Part shown: in pieces, positions 2,559 to 38,875 of the stretch
Layout: each line of letters opens with the position of its first letter
Numbering within the stretch: the stretch's first letter is position 1
Origin: Escherichia phage p000v
Sequence record: NC_055781.1
Reading direction: 5' to 3' (one strand)
Length of the DNA stretch: 64,000 nucleotides
The notes under the pieces: model-generated
Database searches by the model: none
What the model was told of the DNA's origin: nothing
Seen by the model: the letters and a program-made list of their open reading frames with translations, nothing else
Program-made: the position numbers and the translations under genes

Positions 2559-2876
2559 ATGATTAGTTTTGAGCGGTATGTAGTAGAGAGTTGGAATGGT
2601 TTTGATATGTTCGGTAATGACTATTATTTCTATGAATGTAGTCTGAACCCAAGCTTCTGGGCTGGACGTGAACAAGACCTCGAAGAAATCAACGCTCGTG
2701 CCGATTTGTTAGGTGAACTGCCTACGGTTTATTTTACCTTTGATGAATCCGGCTTCGTTATCCAGGTTTATTTTCCTGAAGAAAACTCTGGTGAGGATTC
2801 TGTTAATCCTCCTTATTGGGCTTACCAAGGAATTATTTCTCGTGGAACAAAACTCGAACTTAAAGAACAAGATTGA
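2559..2876 (+). CDS. hypothetical protein
   Basis: 105-aa ORF, 2-nt gap from upstream ORF; no recognisable motif. Confidence 0.4.
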   Translation: MISFERYVVESWNGFDMFGNDYYFYECSLNPSFWAGREQDLEEINARADLLGELPTVYFTFDESGFVIQVYFPEENSGEDSVNPPYWAYQGIISRGTKLELKEQD

Positions 2877-3165
2877 AATTTATGGCATCCCTGAAGAAGT
2901 TGGACGTTGTCCAGGATGTTATACTGTTACAAAACTTTTAAAGGAGCTCAATGCTCCTTATACATTTTATAAAGTCCTCACTAATAATGGTAAGATTGAA
3001 TATGACCGTCCTTTAATCGTATCTCTTGCTAAACGTGCAGGATTCACTTCACTTAATATTCGTTATCCTGTCATATTTTTAAATGATAAGAAACAAAAGA
3101 ATATTGCAGAGTTTAAAAAGTCCTTGATTTCATTAGGATATGACTCTGATATCATAGAAGATTGA
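2842..3165 (+). CDS. nrdH: glutaredoxin-like protein, start uncertain (GTG at 2842 proposed)
   Basis: IEIYGIPEEVGRCPGCYTVTK thioredoxin-fold CxxC motif; no in-frame ATG nearby, the ORF-track N-terminus 2713.. overlaps the upstream gene; AAGGA 12 nt before GTG. Confidence 0.55.
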   Translation: MEQNSNLKNKIEIYGIPEEVGRCPGCYTVTKLLKELNAPYTFYKVLTNNGKIEYDRPLIVSLAKRAGFTSLNIRYPVIFLNDKKQKNIAEFKKSLISLGYDSDIIED

Positions 3166-3765: not shown

Positions 3766-4059
3766 ATGGGTAAAACATATCGTCGTAAAGATTTGAAAGT
3801 TCGCGATTATGACTATTTTGGTAAGCGTAAAGCTCCTGACGGTGTTAGCCACAAGGACATGGTTGAAAACATTTTCCGCTCAGATAAATGGAAACGTATG
3901 AAAGGAGTTGATTCTGAAGTCAAGAATGAAATGAATCGACAACTCCGCAAAGAAGTTCGTAAGTTGAAAAAAGATGTTTACAGTAAAGAAGAGTATGATT
4001 ATAATACTTCTCATACTGAAGCCAAACGTAAAGCTAACGAATGTTATCGTTACAGTTGA
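3766..4059 (+). CDS. hypothetical basic protein
   Basis: ATG at 3766 with GAGG RBS; Lys/Arg-rich (RRKDLKVRDYDYFGKRK). Confidence 0.4.
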   Translation: MGKTYRRKDLKVRDYDYFGKRKAPDGVSHKDMVENIFRSDKWKRMKGVDSEVKNEMNRQLRKEVRKLKKDVYSKEEYDYNTSHTEAKRKANECYRYS

Positions 4060-24758: not shown

Positions 24759-26201
24759 GTGGTAGAAATTATTTTGTCTCATCTAGTATACGACCAGGCT
24801 TATTTTTCTAAGGTCTGGCCTTATATGGATTCTGATTACTTTGAGCGTGGACCGGCAAAAAACGTCTTTAAAATTATAAAGAGCCACGTTAACGAATATA
24901 ATGCAATGCCATCTATCAATGCATTAAAGGTGGCTTTAGATAACAGTTCTTTAACTGAAGCTGAATATAAAGGAACTTCAGACCTAATTGAAAAATTGGC
25001 TGATACTCCTGAAGACCATGAATGGCTGGTTAAAGAAACTGAGAAATATGTCCAGCAAAAAGCGATGTATAATGCTACATCCAAAATCATTGAGATTCAG
25101 TCTAATGCTGAACTACCTCCAGAACAACGTAACAAGAAAATGCCTGACGTAGGAGCTATTCCTGATATTATGCGTCAAGCGCTTTCAATTTCGTTCGATA
25201 GTTATGTTGGACATGACTGGATGGAAGACTACGAAGCACGCTGGCTTTCTTATCTAAATAAAGCACGTAAGGTCCCGTTCAAATTAAACATTTTGAATAA
25301 AATCACCAAAGGTGGTGCCGAAACCGGTACACTAAACGTTTTAATGGCGGGTGTTAACGTTGGTAAATCTTTAGGCCTTTGTTCACTTGCTGCAGATTAT
25401 CTTCAAACAGGTCATAATGTTCTTTATATTTCCATGGAAATGGCTGAAGAAGTTTGTGCTAAGCGTATAGATGCAAACATGCTTGACGTATCACTTGATG
25501 ATATCGATGATGGTAACGTATCTTATGCTGAATATAAAGCCAAGATGGAAAAATGGCGTTCAAAAACAACATTAGGACGTTTAGTAGTTAAACAGTATCC
25601 TACCGGTGGAGCTAATGCTAATACATTCCGTGCATTGCTTAATGAGTTAAAACTCAAGAAGAACTTTGTGCCGTCTGTAATCATGGTTGATTACTTAGGT
25701 ATTTGTGGGTCTTGTCGTATCAGAGTTTACACTGAAAATAGCTACACATTAGTTAAAGCTATCGCAGAAGAACTTCGTGCATTAGCAGTAGAATCTGAAA
25801 CAGTTCTATGGACTGCTGCTCAGGTAGGACGTGCAGCATGGGATGCTTCAGACATGAACATGAGTGATATCGCAGAATCAGCAGGTTTACCAGCAACGGC
25901 AGATTTCATGTTGGCTGTAATTGAAACCGAAGAACTTGCACAAGCTGAACAACAACTTATCAAACAAATCAAATCACGATATGGTGATAAGAATAAGTGG
26001 AATAAATTCCTGATGGGTGTACGTAAAGGCAATCAGAAATGGGTTGAGATTGAGCAAGAAGGCATGAACACACCTAACACAGTAAATGAAAACGCAGGTG
26101 CTCAGATGCGTCAAGCAGAGGTGAATCGTACGGAACGCGTAGGTAAAGCCAAAGCAACACGTGCTGACCTAGATAGCTTAGCCAACGAGTTAAAATTTTA
26201 A
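24759..26201 (+). CDS. 41: replicative DNA helicase gp41 (DnaB-like)
   Basis: 480 aa; Walker A GVNVGKS; GTG start preceded by AAGGAG RBS. Confidence 0.95.
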   Translation: MVEIILSHLVYDQAYFSKVWPYMDSDYFERGPAKNVFKIIKSHVNEYNAMPSINALKVALDNSSLTEAEYKGTSDLIEKLADTPEDHEWLVKETEKYVQQKAMYNATSKIIEIQSNAELPPEQRNKKMPDVGAIPDIMRQALSISFDSYVGHDWMEDYEARWLSYLNKARKVPFKLNILNKITKGGAETGTLNVLMAGVNVGKSLGLCSLAADYLQTGHNVLYISMEMAEEVCAKRIDANMLDVSLDDIDDGNVSYAEYKAKMEKWRSKTTLGRLVVKQYPTGGANANTFRALLNELKLKKNFVPSVIMVDYLGICGSCRIRVYTENSYTLVKAIAEELRALAVESETVLWTAAQVGRAAWDASDMNMSDIAESAGLPATADFMLAVIETEELAQAEQQLIKQIKSRYGDKNKWNKFLMGVRKGNQKWVEIEQEGMNTPNTVNENAGAQMRQAEVNRTERVGKAKATRADLDSLANELKF

Positions 26202-26207
26202 TAAAAA

Positions 26208-26226
26208 GGAGACTTCGGTCTCCTTT
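26208..26226 (+). terminator. intrinsic terminator (GGAGAC-ttcg-GTCTCC then TTT)
   Basis: UUCG tetraloop hairpin right after the gene 41 stop. Confidence 0.55.
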
Positions 26227-26230
26227 CGGG

Positions 26231-26260
26231 GTTTACATCTTCCTCTAGGCATGATATGAT
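26231..26260 (+). promoter_or_regulatory. T4-type early promoter (GTTTAC -18- TATGAT)
   Basis: consensus-like -35 and -10 upstream of ORF 26290. Confidence 0.45.
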
Positions 26261-26289
26261 GTACTTACACTAACCAAGAGGAAAACATT

Positions 26290-26664
26290 ATGAATATGTC
26301 TCAAGCAATTTTTACTGCAATCACCGAAAACACAACTGTTGAAGTAGTTTCTCCGCTGGCAACCTACGTTATTCTTGCTCCTAAATCTATTGTATCTCGT
26401 ATGGAAAACATGGGCAAACGTATCGTACAAATCGTTGGAGCCGGAAATCAAAAACTTGATTATCTGCGAACCATCAAAGCTTATGAACATTTCCAACTCG
26501 AAAAAGGTTCTCCCATCCAGGTAGAACTCGTAAATGGTGATATCGTTCGAGCAATGTTCCATCATTTCTATGCATTGAATGACCCATCTAAAGCGGTTCG
26601 TTTAATTGCATACGACGCAAACCAAAACGAAATCAACGCAGATATATCTAAATTACGTTTTTAA
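26290..26664 (+). CDS. hypothetical protein
   Basis: 124-aa ORF. Confidence 0.4.
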   Translation: MNMSQAIFTAITENTTVEVVSPLATYVILAPKSIVSRMENMGKRIVQIVGAGNQKLDYLRTIKAYEHFQLEKGSPIQVELVNGDIVRAMFHHFYALNDPSKAVRLIAYDANQNEINADISKLRF

Positions 26665-26715
26665 GTTTACTTCTCCAGTAGTTATGTTATTATAGATCTA
26701 TCAACTACTGGAGAA
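26665..26715 (+). promoter_or_regulatory. early promoter (GTTTAC -17- TATTAT) embedded in a 13-bp perfect inverted repeat
   Basis: TTCTCCAGTAGTT (26671-26683) / AACTACTGGAGAA (26703-26715); -10 in the loop; the right arm contains the GGAGAA RBS of the next gene. Confidence 0.5.
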
Positions 26716-26719
26716 CAAA

Positions 26720-27037
26720 ATGAAAACCATCGATTGTAAAGCAGAATTTAAGATTTTTTATCACGGTTCAAGTAGTTCAGCTAACATCGAAAACATGCTT
26801 TGTCCTCCTGAAGAAACAGGAGTTCTGTCTGAAACCGGACGTAAGAAAAACTTGAATCGTGTATTCTTTACTGAAGATATCGGTTTAGCAAAGATTTACG
26901 CAGGACGAGCAGCACGCTCTTATGGAGGTGAACCACGTCTCTATCGAGTAATTTCTCCGGTAGATGTAGTTCAAATGAATGATACTAAAGGTGCTACAGT
27001 TTATCATGCTGAATGGGCATTTTGCGAGGAAATATGA
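26720..27037 (+). CDS. hypothetical protein
   Basis: 105-aa ORF with RBS; no recognisable family. Confidence 0.4.
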   Translation: MKTIDCKAEFKIFYHGSSSSANIENMLCPPEETGVLSETGRKKNLNRVFFTEDIGLAKIYAGRAARSYGGEPRLYRVISPVDVVQMNDTKGATVYHAEWAFCEEI

Positions 27038-27222
27038 GCAAATTAACTAAAATTACTTTTATTGGCTGGTTTAAAAGCGGTGAGATGTTCACTAAAGATA
27101 TCATGTTATCAGGTGATCGTGAAGAAATCGAGTGGGTTGCGGTGCAACTCGCCGAAGTGAACAATGCATTAGTTAAAGCATTTATTAATGACGAGAAAGT
27201 TTTTGAAGCTGATTTTCGATAA
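27034..27222 (+). CDS. dmd: Dmd-like small protein (possible antitoxin, discriminator of mRNA degradation)
   Basis: about 62 aa from ATG at 27034 (ATGA overlap); size and position between 41 and 61 match T4 dmd; assignment from recalled family features. Confidence 0.4.
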   Translation: MSKLTKITFIGWFKSGEMFTKDIMLSGDREEIEWVAVQLAEVNNALVKAFINDEKVFEADFR

Positions 27223-27235
27223 TTTTAAAATAACT

Positions 27236-27265
27236 GTTTACAAGCACCACATACTGTGTTACTAT
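27236..27265 (+). promoter_or_regulatory. T4-type early promoter (GTTTAC -18- TACTAT)
   Basis: upstream of lipoprotein ORF 27294. Confidence 0.45.
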
Positions 27266-27293
27266 CTTTTTATCAACTACAGAGGAAATTGAA

Positions 27294-27662
27294 ATGAAAA
27301 AATTAATCGCTTTAGCAATGGTATTTGGATTAACAGGATGTGGTGCTCATGGCTTTATCCCTAATAACGTTGGCCAATTGATTTATAACCCGAATGTTAA
27401 ACAGTACAACCAACCTAAAGTTGAAGTGGAAGACCCGGTTACTGTAGGTAATCGAATGATTCAAGCTGATGCCCATGCTCAACGTTATCGTGATTCTGAT
27501 ACTGTAGCATTGTCAAAAGAACAACGCGTTAAAGAACATTGCTTACAGGCTACTGAAATCGCATTCATTCGCTATGTTGAAACAACTGGCAAAGAGCCTT
27601 CCCAGAAACAAATCGCGAATAACTACGTCCAGTGTATTGAACGTTTAAACAAATTTAATTAA
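27294..27662 (+). CDS. putative lipoprotein
   Basis: 122 aa; signal peptide with lipobox MKKLIALAMVFGLTGC. Confidence 0.5.
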   Translation: MKKLIALAMVFGLTGCGAHGFIPNNVGQLIYNPNVKQYNQPKVEVEDPVTVGNRMIQADAHAQRYRDSDTVALSKEQRVKEHCLQATEIAFIRYVETTGKEPSQKQIANNYVQCIERLNKFN

Positions 27663-27665
27663 TTG

Positions 27666-27695
27666 GTTTACACCAAAGTTAAACCAAGATACTAT
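27666..27695 (+). promoter_or_regulatory. T4-type early promoter (GTTTAC -18- TACTAT)
   Basis: upstream of ORF 27724. Confidence 0.45.
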
Positions 27696-27723
27696 AAACA
27701 TAACAAATCAAGAGGAAATTAAC

Positions 27724-27972
27724 ATGGAATTATTCGTGGCTAGTTCAGTAGCAGTTTTAATCGCAGGTATTGGTTCAATCATCATTTACATGTTGCCTTG
27801 GGTAATCGCACTTATTCGTGGCACAAAAAGCACAACAGCAATCTTCTTTGTATCTTTACTCTTTAACTGGACGATGATTGGTTGGATTGGAACTTTAATT
27901 TGGTCTATCGTTGCCGAAAAGAAATCTGCTCAGCAGACTCAACAAGTAATTATTATTCGCGAAAAAGAATAA
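27724..27972 (+). CDS. small inner-membrane protein (two predicted TM helices)
   Basis: 82 aa, two hydrophobic segments. Confidence 0.45.
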   Translation: MELFVASSVAVLIAGIGSIIIYMLPWVIALIRGTKSTTAIFFVSLLFNWTMIGWIGTLIWSIVAEKKSAQQTQQVIIIREKE

Positions 27973-27976
27973 ACTT

Positions 27977-28011
27977 GTTTACATTATAGATGGACTATAG
28001 TATAGTAGTCC
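27977..28011 (+). promoter_or_regulatory. T4-type early promoter (GTTTAC -18- TATAGT) with inverted repeat GGACTA/TAGTCC around the -10
   Basis: upstream of ORF 28036. Confidence 0.45.
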
Positions 28012-28035
28012 TATCAAATCAACTAAGGAGTTAAA

Positions 28036-28329
28036 ATGAAAAAGTTATCATTGGCAGCAATCCTACTTGCAGTATCATGTGCACCGGCTCCAGTTACGGC
28101 AGGTTATGATAAAGACCTCTGTGAGTGGTCAATGACTGCAAATCAAGAAGATGTTGAACAACAAATCTTCTCTGATATCATGAACATCACTAAACGAGAC
28201 CGTCCTAATATGGTTAATAAAGTTGTTGAACAACTTAAGTCTGGCGGTATCATGCAGTACAACTATGTTTTGTATTGTGACCCTAATTTCGATAACAAAG
28301 ATATCGTAACCGAAATCACAGGTGAATAA
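28036..28329 (+). CDS. sp: secreted/periplasmic protein, Spackle (Sp)-like
   Basis: 97 aa with N-terminal signal peptide (MKKLSLAAILLAVSCAPAPVTAG); size and position between 41 and 61 match T4 sp. Confidence 0.45.
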   Translation: MKKLSLAAILLAVSCAPAPVTAGYDKDLCEWSMTANQEDVEQQIFSDIMNITKRDRPNMVNKVVEQLKSGGIMQYNYVLYCDPNFDNKDIVTEITGE

Positions 28330-28330
28330 T

Positions 28331-28981
28331 ATGATTTATTATATGCACAAAAACGCGCCATTTAAATATGGTAAATTTCCTAATGCACAATGTTATAATA
28401 TAACGCCGAATGAAAATAATAACGGATACCATATTGGTGTAATTTTTGTAATTGTTAAAGATAACGAAATCGTTGCCTGGGCAGATTTTAAAGGTACAAC
28501 ATATGATGTTAATCCTGTGCCTTTCACATATTACAATATAATGGATTTGGCATATGATTATAATTGGTTTACTCATGACACGTTGGCTCATATTGAAGGT
28601 GTAGGATTTGACATCTCTTATTCTAGCTATTCGTTACGTCCTATGAGCCGAGCTCACGGTAAAGATGTATCATATCTTTCAATTCGGAAACGTGTAAACT
28701 TCAAACGTAGTACAGAGTATGTTGGTGGACTCTTTGTTAAAGATAATAAAATAACCCGTATTAGTTATCCTTTAAGTGTAGATCAAAAAGATGTTGATGT
28801 TGATTTAGTCTTAACTGAAAGTAACATTAATCGTATTGCTTCTGTATATTTTGATATCAATGAAAAAATTGTAGTGTGTGGATACGAATTACCACTTGAA
28901 GAAAAGGCTGAAGCAATTGAAGTCGAATTAGAAATTTCTGTTGATGACCAAATATTTAATGCATTTATGAATCGAGGTTAA
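28331..28981 (+). CDS. hypothetical protein
   Basis: about 216 aa from the ATG right after the upstream stop. Confidence 0.4.
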   Translation: MIYYMHKNAPFKYGKFPNAQCYNITPNENNNGYHIGVIFVIVKDNEIVAWADFKGTTYDVNPVPFTYYNIMDLAYDYNWFTHDTLAHIEGVGFDISYSSYSLRPMSRAHGKDVSYLSIRKRVNFKRSTEYVGGLFVKDNKITRISYPLSVDQKDVDVDLVLTESNINRIASVYFDINEKIVVCGYELPLEEKAEAIEVELEISVDDQIFNAFMNRG

Positions 28982-28982
28982 A

Positions 28983-29180
28983 ATGACTACTGCAATTTGC
29001 ACTGGTTCTAAAATTAGTGTTTTTACAAGTTTTGAAGATTATGAAGTTGTTTCAAAACACCAATACAATATTAACGTAAAAGCTAATGATGGTGTAATTT
29101 GGAATATTCCACACTATGAAGACACTACATATGAAGTCACAGATGCGAACGGTGATAAAGCGATCTTTGTGATTGATTAA
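28983..29180 (+). CDS. hypothetical protein
   Basis: 65-aa ORF. Confidence 0.35.
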   Translation: MTTAICTGSKISVFTSFEDYEVVSKHQYNINVKANDGVIWNIPHYEDTTYEVTDANGDKAIFVID

Positions 29181-29199
29181 ATATACTCAGGAGGTACCT

Positions 29200-29667
29200 A
29201 TGGGTATTATTAACACTGCAATAGATTCTGTTTACGCATATAAGTTTATTCGACTAATGCAAAAACCTTTTACCGAATGGAAAGCGTACGAAGCCAAAAT
29301 AATCGACGAACGTGGAAGTGTTCTTAAACGTCCTTCTACTCCCGAAGAGAAAGCGGCTTATACACCTTTTCATGCTTCAGTTCGTTCAATGAAGCGAATG
29401 ATGAGTACTGTTCCAGGTCTTAATGGAATGGCCTCAATGATGTCTGCCTGGAGTGCTGTAGCTTCACGCTATAACATTACTGAAGAACAACAGAAAGAAA
29501 TATTTAAAGAACTCCCTTTATTTGAGGATATGGTTGCTGGTGATTCAGGTGGCAGTCCTCAAGCTATTGCATCAGGAACAACTACAGGTGCAGTCGTAAA
29601 TAAAGGTCCAGAACAAATTCCTTCCAAGAAAAGAAAGCGAATTAAAGTAAATATTAATAAGTTGTGA
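29200..29667 (+). CDS. hypothetical protein
   Basis: ATG at 29200 with CAGGAGGTACCT RBS; 155 aa. Confidence 0.45.
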   Translation: MGIINTAIDSVYAYKFIRLMQKPFTEWKAYEAKIIDERGSVLKRPSTPEEKAAYTPFHASVRSMKRMMSTVPGLNGMASMMSAWSAVASRYNITEEQQKEIFKELPLFEDMVAGDSGGSPQAIASGTTTGAVVNKGPEQIPSKKRKRIKVNINKL

Positions 29668-29706
29668 TAAGATGGCCTTATTAATTTAAGGCCTCTGGAG
29701 AATACT

Positions 29707-30729
29707 ATGGCTGAATGGATAGATAATGAATTTGCTTATCGTGCGTTTTCTCACCTACCTCGTTTTAGACAAATCAATAATTCAAGCACATTTAAATTAA
29801 CATTTCGATGCCCAGTTTGTGGCGACTCTCAGACAGATGCAATGAAAGCCCGCGGATGGTATTATGGCGGTACTCCAGGTAATGTGCATTGCTATAACTG
29901 CCAATATCATAATACAATTTCTGGATACTTAAAAGAGTACGATGAAGAGCTTTATCGCGAGTATCTAATGGAAGTTCGTAAAGAAAAAGCTAGAATGGAA
30001 CCAAAGATTGAAAAGGTTCCTGAACATAAACCGGAACCGGAGAAAAAGACTATAAATTCTTTGCCGTCTTGTTCTCGTCTGGACAAGTTGCCTGAAGAGC
30101 ATCCTATTGTGAAATATGTTAAGTCTCGGTGTATTCCTAAAGAATCATGGAACAGATTATGGTTCACATTAGAATGGCCCAAATTGGTCAACAAGATTCA
30201 ACCTGGTACGTATAAGAAAGAGATTCCCGAGCCACGTTTAGTGATTCCTATTTTTAATAAAGACGGGAAGGCCGAGTCATTCCAAGGACGTGCACTTCGT
30301 AAAGATGCTCCTCAAAAATATATCACTATTAAAGCTTTTGAATCCGCAACAAAAATTTATGGTGTTGAACGTGTTAAGGAAGGGGACGTCTGGGTAATGG
30401 AAGGCCCTATTGATAGTTTATTCATACCCAATGCAATAGCTATTACAGGCGGCTCAATAGATTTAGATGTGGTGCCATTTAAAGAACGTCGGGTATGGGT
30501 AATGGATAATGAACCTAGGCATCCGGATACTATAGCTCGTATGAAGCGATTAGTTGATGCAGGCGAACGTGTCATGTTCTGGGACCGAGCTCCATGGAGA
30601 TCAAAGGATGTGAATGATATGGTAATGAAAGAAAATGCAACACCACAAGAAATTTTAGAATATATGAAACAGAATATTTCAAGTGGGTTGCATGCTAAAA
30701 TGAGATTATCTCGTTATTCGAAGATTTAA
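29707..30729 (+). CDS. 61: DNA primase gp61
   Basis: 340 aa; N-terminal zinc ribbon CPVCGDS...CYNC; TOPRIM-like acidic motifs. Confidence 0.9.
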   Translation: MAEWIDNEFAYRAFSHLPRFRQINNSSTFKLTFRCPVCGDSQTDAMKARGWYYGGTPGNVHCYNCQYHNTISGYLKEYDEELYREYLMEVRKEKARMEPKIEKVPEHKPEPEKKTINSLPSCSRLDKLPEEHPIVKYVKSRCIPKESWNRLWFTLEWPKLVNKIQPGTYKKEIPEPRLVIPIFNKDGKAESFQGRALRKDAPQKYITIKAFESATKIYGVERVKEGDVWVMEGPIDSLFIPNAIAITGGSIDLDVVPFKERRVWVMDNEPRHPDTIARMKRLVDAGERVMFWDRAPWRSKDVNDMVMKENATPQEILEYMKQNISSGLHAKMRLSRYSKI

Positions 30730-38846: not shown

Positions 38847-38875
38847 GTTTACTTCTCCTCTGGTTTTGATATTAT
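38847..38875 (+). promoter_or_regulatory. early promoter (GTTTAC -17- TATTAT)
   Basis: upstream of ORF 38902. Confidence 0.45.

Follow-up and report, generated by a model that had tools for sequence, protein, structure and literature searches.

Alt, ModA and ModB are ADP-ribosyltransferases (ARTs) of the T-even phages. In T4, the dmd gene (61.5) lies downstream of the helicase gene 41 and heads its own early unit together with tifA; Dmd inhibits the host RNase toxins RnlA and LsoA, and TifA is an inhibitor of ToxN (PMC9391042). A different role has been predicted for Dmd by Iyer, Burroughs, Anantharaman & Aravind (2022; PMC9503650), namely that of antitoxin to a toxin from the 'p0068 family' of ARTs in Escherichia, Shigella and Salmonella phages. 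Here, we analyse positions 26720-28329 of a 64,000-nucleotide (nt) stretch of Escherichia phage p000v (NC_055781.1; the whole stretch is called the window hereafter), in which a previous interpretation made without database searches (the sequence-only reading) had flagged four putative host-interaction genes located between helicase 41 and primase 61. The interval is very probably part of a variable early-gene region between 41 and 61, arranged in four short units that are each headed by a GTTTAC promoter: ART-dmd, imm.1, imm and sp. The most interesting object in it is a gene that was not listed among the four, encoding a conserved Arr-related mini-ART.

The corresponding open reading frame (ORF), at 26720..27037 on the + strand, encodes a protein of 105 residues that is a homologue of RB69 ORF040c and matches phrog_2110 (5e-60), a family whose function label is 'unknown'. 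It was absent from the list of the sequence-only reading, although the start of the interval, 26720, is its own ATG. It occupies about 20% of the interval, of which it is the least understood gene, and its stop codon overlaps the start codon of dmd (ATGA at 27034-27037). The protein belongs to the ADP-ribosyltransferase fold, in a minimal form related to Arr and Tpt1, and its AlphaFold model is confident (predicted local distance difference test score, pLDDT, of 84). Searching the PDB with the single protein sequence or with a profile of its close family gave no match; only the profile of the wider family reached Arr (PDB entries 2hw2 and 9iaf; E=7e-5), placing His15 opposite His19 of Arr and Phe49 opposite its Tyr49 in an alignment that spans only Arr residues 13-82. 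Among the members of this wider family, 18 of 29 match the Pfam family Arr-ms (PF12120) at E<=0.01, and in a separate scan four of ten full-length relatives passed its 25-bit cut-off. As the window protein itself is below the cut-off while the wider family and its profile match Arr, it is best classed, judging from its sequence, as an Arr homologue and not as a member of PF12120.

Compared with Arr (143 residues), the window ART lacks the C-terminal third and carries a Phe in place of Tyr49. Its family is also distinguished from both Arr and Tpt1 by an invariant E-x-G-R-K-K-N-L loop of its own, and the N-terminal RNA-binding domain of Tpt1/KptA is missing. Among the closest structural matches is AcrF11 (PDB entry 6kyf), a small phage ART that disables a CRISPR complex, with no sequence-level kinship shown. 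Over the wide ART family, His15, Gly16, Pro29, Glu38 and Ala57 are invariant, and Arg41, Phe49, Thr51, Tyr60 and Gly69-Gly70 nearly so.

The ART is present in 608 phage records, mainly from phages of Escherichia (214), Klebsiella (116), Acinetobacter (68) and Aeromonas (62), across which its identity is 60-70%. Most of the records label it as hypothetical, and a few as 'putative ADP-ribosyl transferase'. An exhaustive profile search retrieved 254 relatives, many of which are domains inside large phage proteins, for example a lambda-type portal fusion with a 2H/Acb1-like phosphoesterase domain; other polyvalent carriers hold the ART domain alongside ART-PolyVal, NUDIX, GNAT and Toprim domains. 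Phage or mobile-element proteins with an ART domain reach 3,900 residues (P0124-P0194 in our numbering, for example P0190, P0139 and P0164). In T4, no ART was found: a tblastn search of its first 50 kb was empty, and only 58 nt separate 41 from dmd. Ten 'Tequatrovirus' records were counted for Dmd, Imm and Imm.1, and not for the ART. The searched literature contained no experimental study of the ART, and its apparent absence from T4 may be the reason for this.

On the basis of fold, conservation and context, we favour the view that the ART is an independent early enzyme that shares its promoter with dmd by chance in Mosigvirus and Dhakavirus. It would use NAD+ to modify a conserved macromolecule of the host and so serve takeover or counter-defence, without depending on Dmd. 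Such an active enzyme with a predicted conserved host target would be a fourth kind of T-even ADP-ribosyltransferase, and we judge this more likely than a toxin restrained by Dmd. Several points weigh against our account of the interval. Its promoters are predicted, as motif matches only, and the role of one of its products, Imm.1 (see below), is guessed from synteny, with a poor model (pLDDT 59.5) and an uninformative fold search. As for the ART, it scores 13.5 bits against the Arr-ms cut-off of 25, Phe stands in for the canonical Tyr of the H-Y-[EDQ] triad in nearly all members of its family, and zero acidic catalytic residues are invariant across the wider family.

Because of these last two points, the ART may act by binding instead of catalysis. 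The 105-residue protein might then be an inactive ART fold that binds, or serves as a sponge for, NAD+, ADP-ribose or an immune signal derived from ADP-ribose; or else it might be a small-molecule ADP-ribosylator like Arr. We consider this unlikely, though not negligible. Its closest sequence relative is indeed Arr, a small-molecule ADP-ribosyltransferase, and it is very small, without the C-terminal third of Arr (105 versus 143 residues). The conserved set consists of His15-Gly16, Phe49-x-Thr51 and Tyr60, in which His15 and Phe49 align with Arr-ms His19 and Tyr49, and no acidic catalytic residue is invariant. Small-molecule targets have moreover been raised for phage Arr-family proteins by Iyer et al. 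(PMC9503650). In the close ART family, however, Glu103 is kept in at least 90% of the members and Asp88 in most of them, and relatives of the ART are embedded in polyvalent proteins among other enzymes. The presence of AcrF11, an active enzyme and a similarly small phage ART, among the nearest structural matches also argues for activity.

We give only a slim chance to another possibility, in which the ART is a phage toxin, possibly RNA-modifying, and Dmd, besides being an RnlA/LsoA inhibitor, is its dedicated antidote in a pair resembling a type II toxin-antitoxin (TA) system. The ATGA overlap, the common promoter and the toxin-first order resemble the arrangement of host rnlA-rnlB, in which the toxin gene also comes first, and the adjacency of ART and Dmd is repeated in Mosigvirus and Dhakavirus genomes. 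Tight control is suggested by a hairpin, described below, that would mask the ribosome-binding site of the ART when transcription reads through. The context described by Iyer et al. (PMC9503650) for their predicted type II TA system fits this locus, the identity of their 'p0068 family' with the window ART being unconfirmed by accession. Yet the comparison of loci points the other way. Dmd is the next gene downstream in just ten of 65 ART loci from IMG/VR, and the 51 callable downstream ORFs of ART loci fall into 23 unrelated BLAST clusters, which include a hydrophobic peptide of 55-60 residues (nine loci) and a Cys-rich acidic peptide of 46 residues (four loci). Elsewhere on the map the ART has unrelated neighbours: it lies near srd and rnlB in RB16 and near tk in Aeromonas phage 65, while in Acinetobacter phage Berthold it is located between 41 and 61.1 and is followed by an unrelated 45-residue ORF. 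T4 Dmd functions without an ART (none in the first 50 kb of T4), and ARTs that are 100% identical are accompanied by Dmd alleles that are only 54% identical, showing no co-variation. The ATGA-type packing itself is the default between neighbours in this region (sp/adfA and adfA/next gene). A dedicated antidote is expected to accompany its toxin and to vary along with it; since Dmd does neither, the TA interpretation is unlikely, the conserved co-occurrence and co-variation of a TA pair being absent here. We therefore hold it to be improbable that Dmd has a second, internal job restraining an overlapping Arr-like ART toxin, which would constitute a TA module in a lytic phage. The toxin-Dmd idea of Iyer et al., the sole published proposal on this ART, is thus weakened by the locus comparison. 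In Dhakavirus-like genomes, three loci (L012, L014 and L015) compared with three others (L011, L013 and L016), at about 2816-3020, have ARTs that are 98-100% identical and Dmd alleles that are 51-54% identical; this suggests that dmd alone may have been exchanged there in a cassette-like manner.

Upstream of the ART, at 26666..26720 on the + strand, is an inverted repeat with 18-nt arms that are 89% complementary; one arm falls within the spacer of the promoter, and the GGAG Shine-Dalgarno sequence of the ART is covered by the other. Folded as RNA, this repeat has an energy of -17.8 kcal/mol (z = -3.4). The promoter of the neighbouring orf124 (see below) has a like repeat at 26240-26283, again with a spacer arm facing a Shine-Dalgarno arm (z = -2.2 for the fold). 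In both cassettes, an anti-Shine-Dalgarno sequence (TCTCC/TTCCTC) comes immediately after the -35 hexamer and can pair with the ribosome-binding site further downstream. Transcription arriving from upstream would thereby conceal that site, and transcripts initiated at the local promoter would not. The masking hairpin is drawn from the window sequence by itself, the 16 ART upstream regions being too diverged to align and to give a consensus structure. Several related loci have the same TCTCC after GTTTAC(A/T) upstream of their ART, and it recurs at position 38847 of the window.

The gene that follows the ART, at 27034..27222 on the + strand, encodes a 62-residue Dmd. The sequence-only reading had called it Dmd-like from size and position, and this is upheld by the Pfam match (PF17587, 70.6 bits for a cut-off of 27, E=1.4e-19, residues 4-62), by phrog_2102 (4e-32) and by the PDB: entry 5i8j, 'Dmd discriminator of mRNA degradation', is matched at E=1.2e-36 with 60 of 62 residues the same (about 97%), and the T4 antitoxin (5hy3_B) at E=2.2e-16. 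T4 Dmd belongs to the same family, with the same size and the same place downstream of 41, and shares the G-W-F and AEVN-ALVKAF motifs, although the two proteins are only 53% identical. By homology with what has been shown for T4, Dmd would bind and block the RnlA/LsoA RNases, which otherwise destroy phage mRNA. Unlike the T4 gene, which is first in its unit, dmd of the window comes second after the ART, with nothing following it in the unit.

Gene 61.4/tifA directly follows dmd in T4, JS10, RB69 and the 98%-identical phage CAU_ECP01. In the window, 71 nt separate dmd from imm.1 (27222-27294), with no tifA, and a search for a TifA-like ORF among the window ORFs found none. When its DNA is aligned with that of RB69, the window is missing about 206 nt downstream of dmd, in a clean deletion whose far end lies just short of the imm.1 promoter. 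The loss of tifA is common to 18 of the 25 closest relatives listed, with single-piece matches of 3501 nt, and the other seven keep the gene (3707 nt).

The next two genes form the superinfection-immunity cassette known from T4. The first one (27294..27662, + strand) encodes a 122-residue homologue of Imm.1, a predicted lipoprotein, with a match to DUF5481 (PF17578) at 37.4 bits (cut-off 27, 3.7e-9). The protein has the sequence features of a bacterial-type lipoprotein: a lipobox of the pattern [LVI][ASTVI][GAS]C, here L13-T14-G15-C16, after a hydrophobic N-terminus (segment 4-22). It would thus be exported to the cell envelope, and the residue after the lipobox Cys, which is Gly rather than Asp, suggests targeting to the outer membrane by the +2 sorting rule of E. 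coli. Two metagenomic homologues of Imm.1 are devoid of the lipobox Cys and look soluble and secreted. Over 97% of its length, the window protein shares 33-35% identity with T4 Imm.1; the latter has the lipobox LAGC and four Cys in its mature region, two of which are missing from the window protein. The second gene (27724..27972, + strand) encodes an 82-residue inner-membrane orthologue of Imm (Imm_superinfect, PF14373, 57.3 bits for a cut-off of 27.9, 1.4e-15), with hydrophobic segments at about residues 1-34 and 40-59 on the Kyte-Doolittle scale, that is 65% identical to T4 Imm over the full length (82 residues). Imm would stop DNA injection by later-arriving phages from its position in the inner membrane, as shown for T4.

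The two genes are likewise adjacent and in the same order in T4, where they are located between 43 and 42, whereas the cassette of the window lies between dmd and sp, with 61 nt and a promoter separating imm.1 from imm instead of 11 nt. Since the pair has stayed together in two different genome positions, Imm.1 may act with Imm. The sequence-only reading rightly saw a lipoprotein and a protein with two transmembrane segments as host-interaction genes, which turn out to be the host-envelope proteins Imm.1 and Imm; its further suggestion of novel paralogues does not hold. That the two are novel paralogues or phage-specific host-interaction genes, as their position between dmd and sp might suggest, this place being occupied by 61.4/tifA in T4, can practically be dismissed: each is homologous over the full length to its T4 counterpart, Imm.1 or Imm, neither has a second copy in the window or in related genomes (the imm match falls at one place per related genome), the T4 site between 42 and 43 holds unrelated ORFs and no imm here, and RB69 annotation places imm.1 and imm at this very position. 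The novel-paralogue reading is refuted by this single-copy, full-length orthology.

The last gene of the interval is sp (spackle; 28036..28329, + strand), which encodes 97 residues comprising a signal peptide and a periplasmic protein of 75 residues. It had been proposed as a signal-peptide protein resembling Spackle, and Pfam agrees (PF25676, 145 bits for a cut-off of 27, 1.1e-42, residues 1-96 of 96), as do PDB entries 6x6o (1.4e-39) and 7cn6 (1.1e-33, the mature part, residues 23-97, being aligned to residues 1-75). Its identity to T4 Sp is 65% across all 97 residues. The hydrophobic segment covers residues 4-24 and both mature-region Cys, Cys29 and Cys81, are kept. T4 Spackle (PDB entries 6x6o, 6xc0, 6xc1, 7cn6 and 7cn7) also has 97 residues, and its mature part begins at the identical sequence GYDKDLCEWSMTA, with no difference of note. 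As shown for T4, Sp would act in the periplasm as an inhibitor of the gp5 tail lysozyme of superinfecting phages. One nt downstream begins adfA (T4 61.2; 28331..28981, + strand), which encodes an anti-DarT factor (Pfam AdfA, 1e-114) that is 66% identical to T4 gp61.2. Its residue 168 (164 when counted from Met5) is an Arg where T4 has a His, corresponding to the R164 allele of RB69. This Arg-type (RB69) allele has been reported to be unable to bind or neutralise DarT1 (PMC11825919).

The unit structure of the interval is read from its promoter motifs and gene spacing. The motif GTTTAC-N16-18-TAYWRT has 11 matches in the window, all on the + strand, compared with 0.26 expected from shuffles. 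Four of them are located in the interval, starting at 26665, 27236, 27666 and 27977; from the end of each, 27-30 nt lead to an ATG with a GAGG/GGAG ribosome-binding site in front of it. The first (GTTTACT-N16-TATTAT, 26665..26693, + strand) belongs to the ART-dmd unit, with 27 nt between its end and the start codon at 26720. The second (GTTTACA-N17-TACTAT, 27236..27265, + strand) precedes imm.1 and is identical in sequence in RB69, the third (GTTTACA-N17-TACTAT, 27666..27695, + strand) precedes imm, and the fourth (GTTTACA-N17-TATAGT, 27977..28006, + strand) would serve sp together with the genes closely packed behind it; a stem-loop extends across the spacer and the -10 element of this last one (z = -2.6 for the RNA fold). 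The seven other copies of the motif lie outside the interval, also on the + strand, at 3976, 37340, 38847, 48864, 49376, 51945 and 54448, and several of them share the spacer sequence GGACTAT with the sp promoter. In T4-type phages, the PeSL cassettes bordering variable genes have a published promoter consensus, TTTACW-N17-TAYWAT (PMC4122927). The motifs of the interval fit it and lie in intergenic gaps before variable ORFs.

Gaps of 55-88 nt bear a promoter, and the remaining junctions are of -4 to +1 nt, except for 19 nt before a 155-residue ORF described below. From this spacing we read the units as orf124, ART-dmd, imm.1, imm, and sp-adfA plus the genes packed downstream. That each flagged gene has its own early promoter is thus right for imm.1, imm and sp and wrong for dmd: the promoter at 26665 precedes the ART ORF, and dmd, whose ATG overlaps the TGA of that ORF, comes second in a unit of two genes.

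The window comes from a phage of the genus Mosigvirus (RB69 group). Its 3.5 kb between 41 and 61 are 98.6% identical in DNA sequence to Escherichia phage CCU7, and the same stretch is about 98% identical in many other Mosigvirus phages of E. coli and Shigella. Flanking it are, as had been surmised, the helicase gene 41 on the left (24759-26201, 86% identical to its T4 counterpart) and the primase gene 61 on the right (29707-30729, 75% identical). All four ORFs of the sequence-only reading (of 62 residues, of 97 residues with a signal peptide, with an LTGC lipobox and with two transmembrane segments) are present on the + strand where they had been placed. Since each matches a curated Pfam family above its cut-off, with concordant PHROGs, they are real genes and not chance ORFs. 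PADLOC and NCBIfam gave zero matches for any ORF, an Rfam scan of 26000-30000 returned just a sub-threshold chance match to a microRNA, and the minus-strand ORFs within the interval are all of at most 56 residues and unsupported.

In GenBank, the RB69 order is ORF041c, ORF040c, dmd, 61.4, imm.1, imm, sp, 61.2, and the part from ORF040c to sp (NC_004928, 18654-20469) has the same gene order and strand as the window, except for 61.4/tifA. Each gene has a single copy in the window, where a second copy of imm, sp or dmd was looked for and not found. The four flagged genes dmd, imm.1, imm and sp are therefore already-annotated, single-copy orthologues of RB69 genes, and there is nothing new in confirming them. 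The sole structural differences from T4 are the position of imm.1-imm, the presence of the ART and of a 124-residue ORF, and the absence of tifA.

This 124-residue ORF, orf124 (26290-26664, + strand), is a homologue of RB69 ORF041c (phrog_10668, 1.3e-85), with no match in Pfam, PADLOC or the first 50 kb of T4; it has a GTTTAC promoter by motif match (26231-26260, + strand). A hairpin with a perfect 9-bp stem and a UUCG tetraloop is located at 26205-26226, 4 nt past the gene 41 stop codon and without a T-run; it is annotated as a terminator in a related phage record. On the other side of the interval, the C-terminal third of the 155-residue ORF (29200-29667) is a homologue of T4 gp61.1 (70% identity). 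For the same stretch, the RB69 annotation has two ORFs, of 63 and 92 residues, that overlap, which means either a fusion here or a frameshift in the RB69 record.

The flagged genes thus serve textbook T-even functions, Imm and Sp acting in superinfection exclusion and Dmd in neutralising a host toxin-antitoxin defence, and counter-defence alleles vary between near-identical phages. The lack of tifA together with an Arg-type adfA predicts that this phage would be sensitive to ToxIN and DarTG1, which is relevant to the choice of phages for therapy or for screens of defence systems. The strongly conserved ART family, present in about 600 genomes of T4-like phages, is an uncharacterised, putative enzyme family and, as such, a modestly interesting lead.

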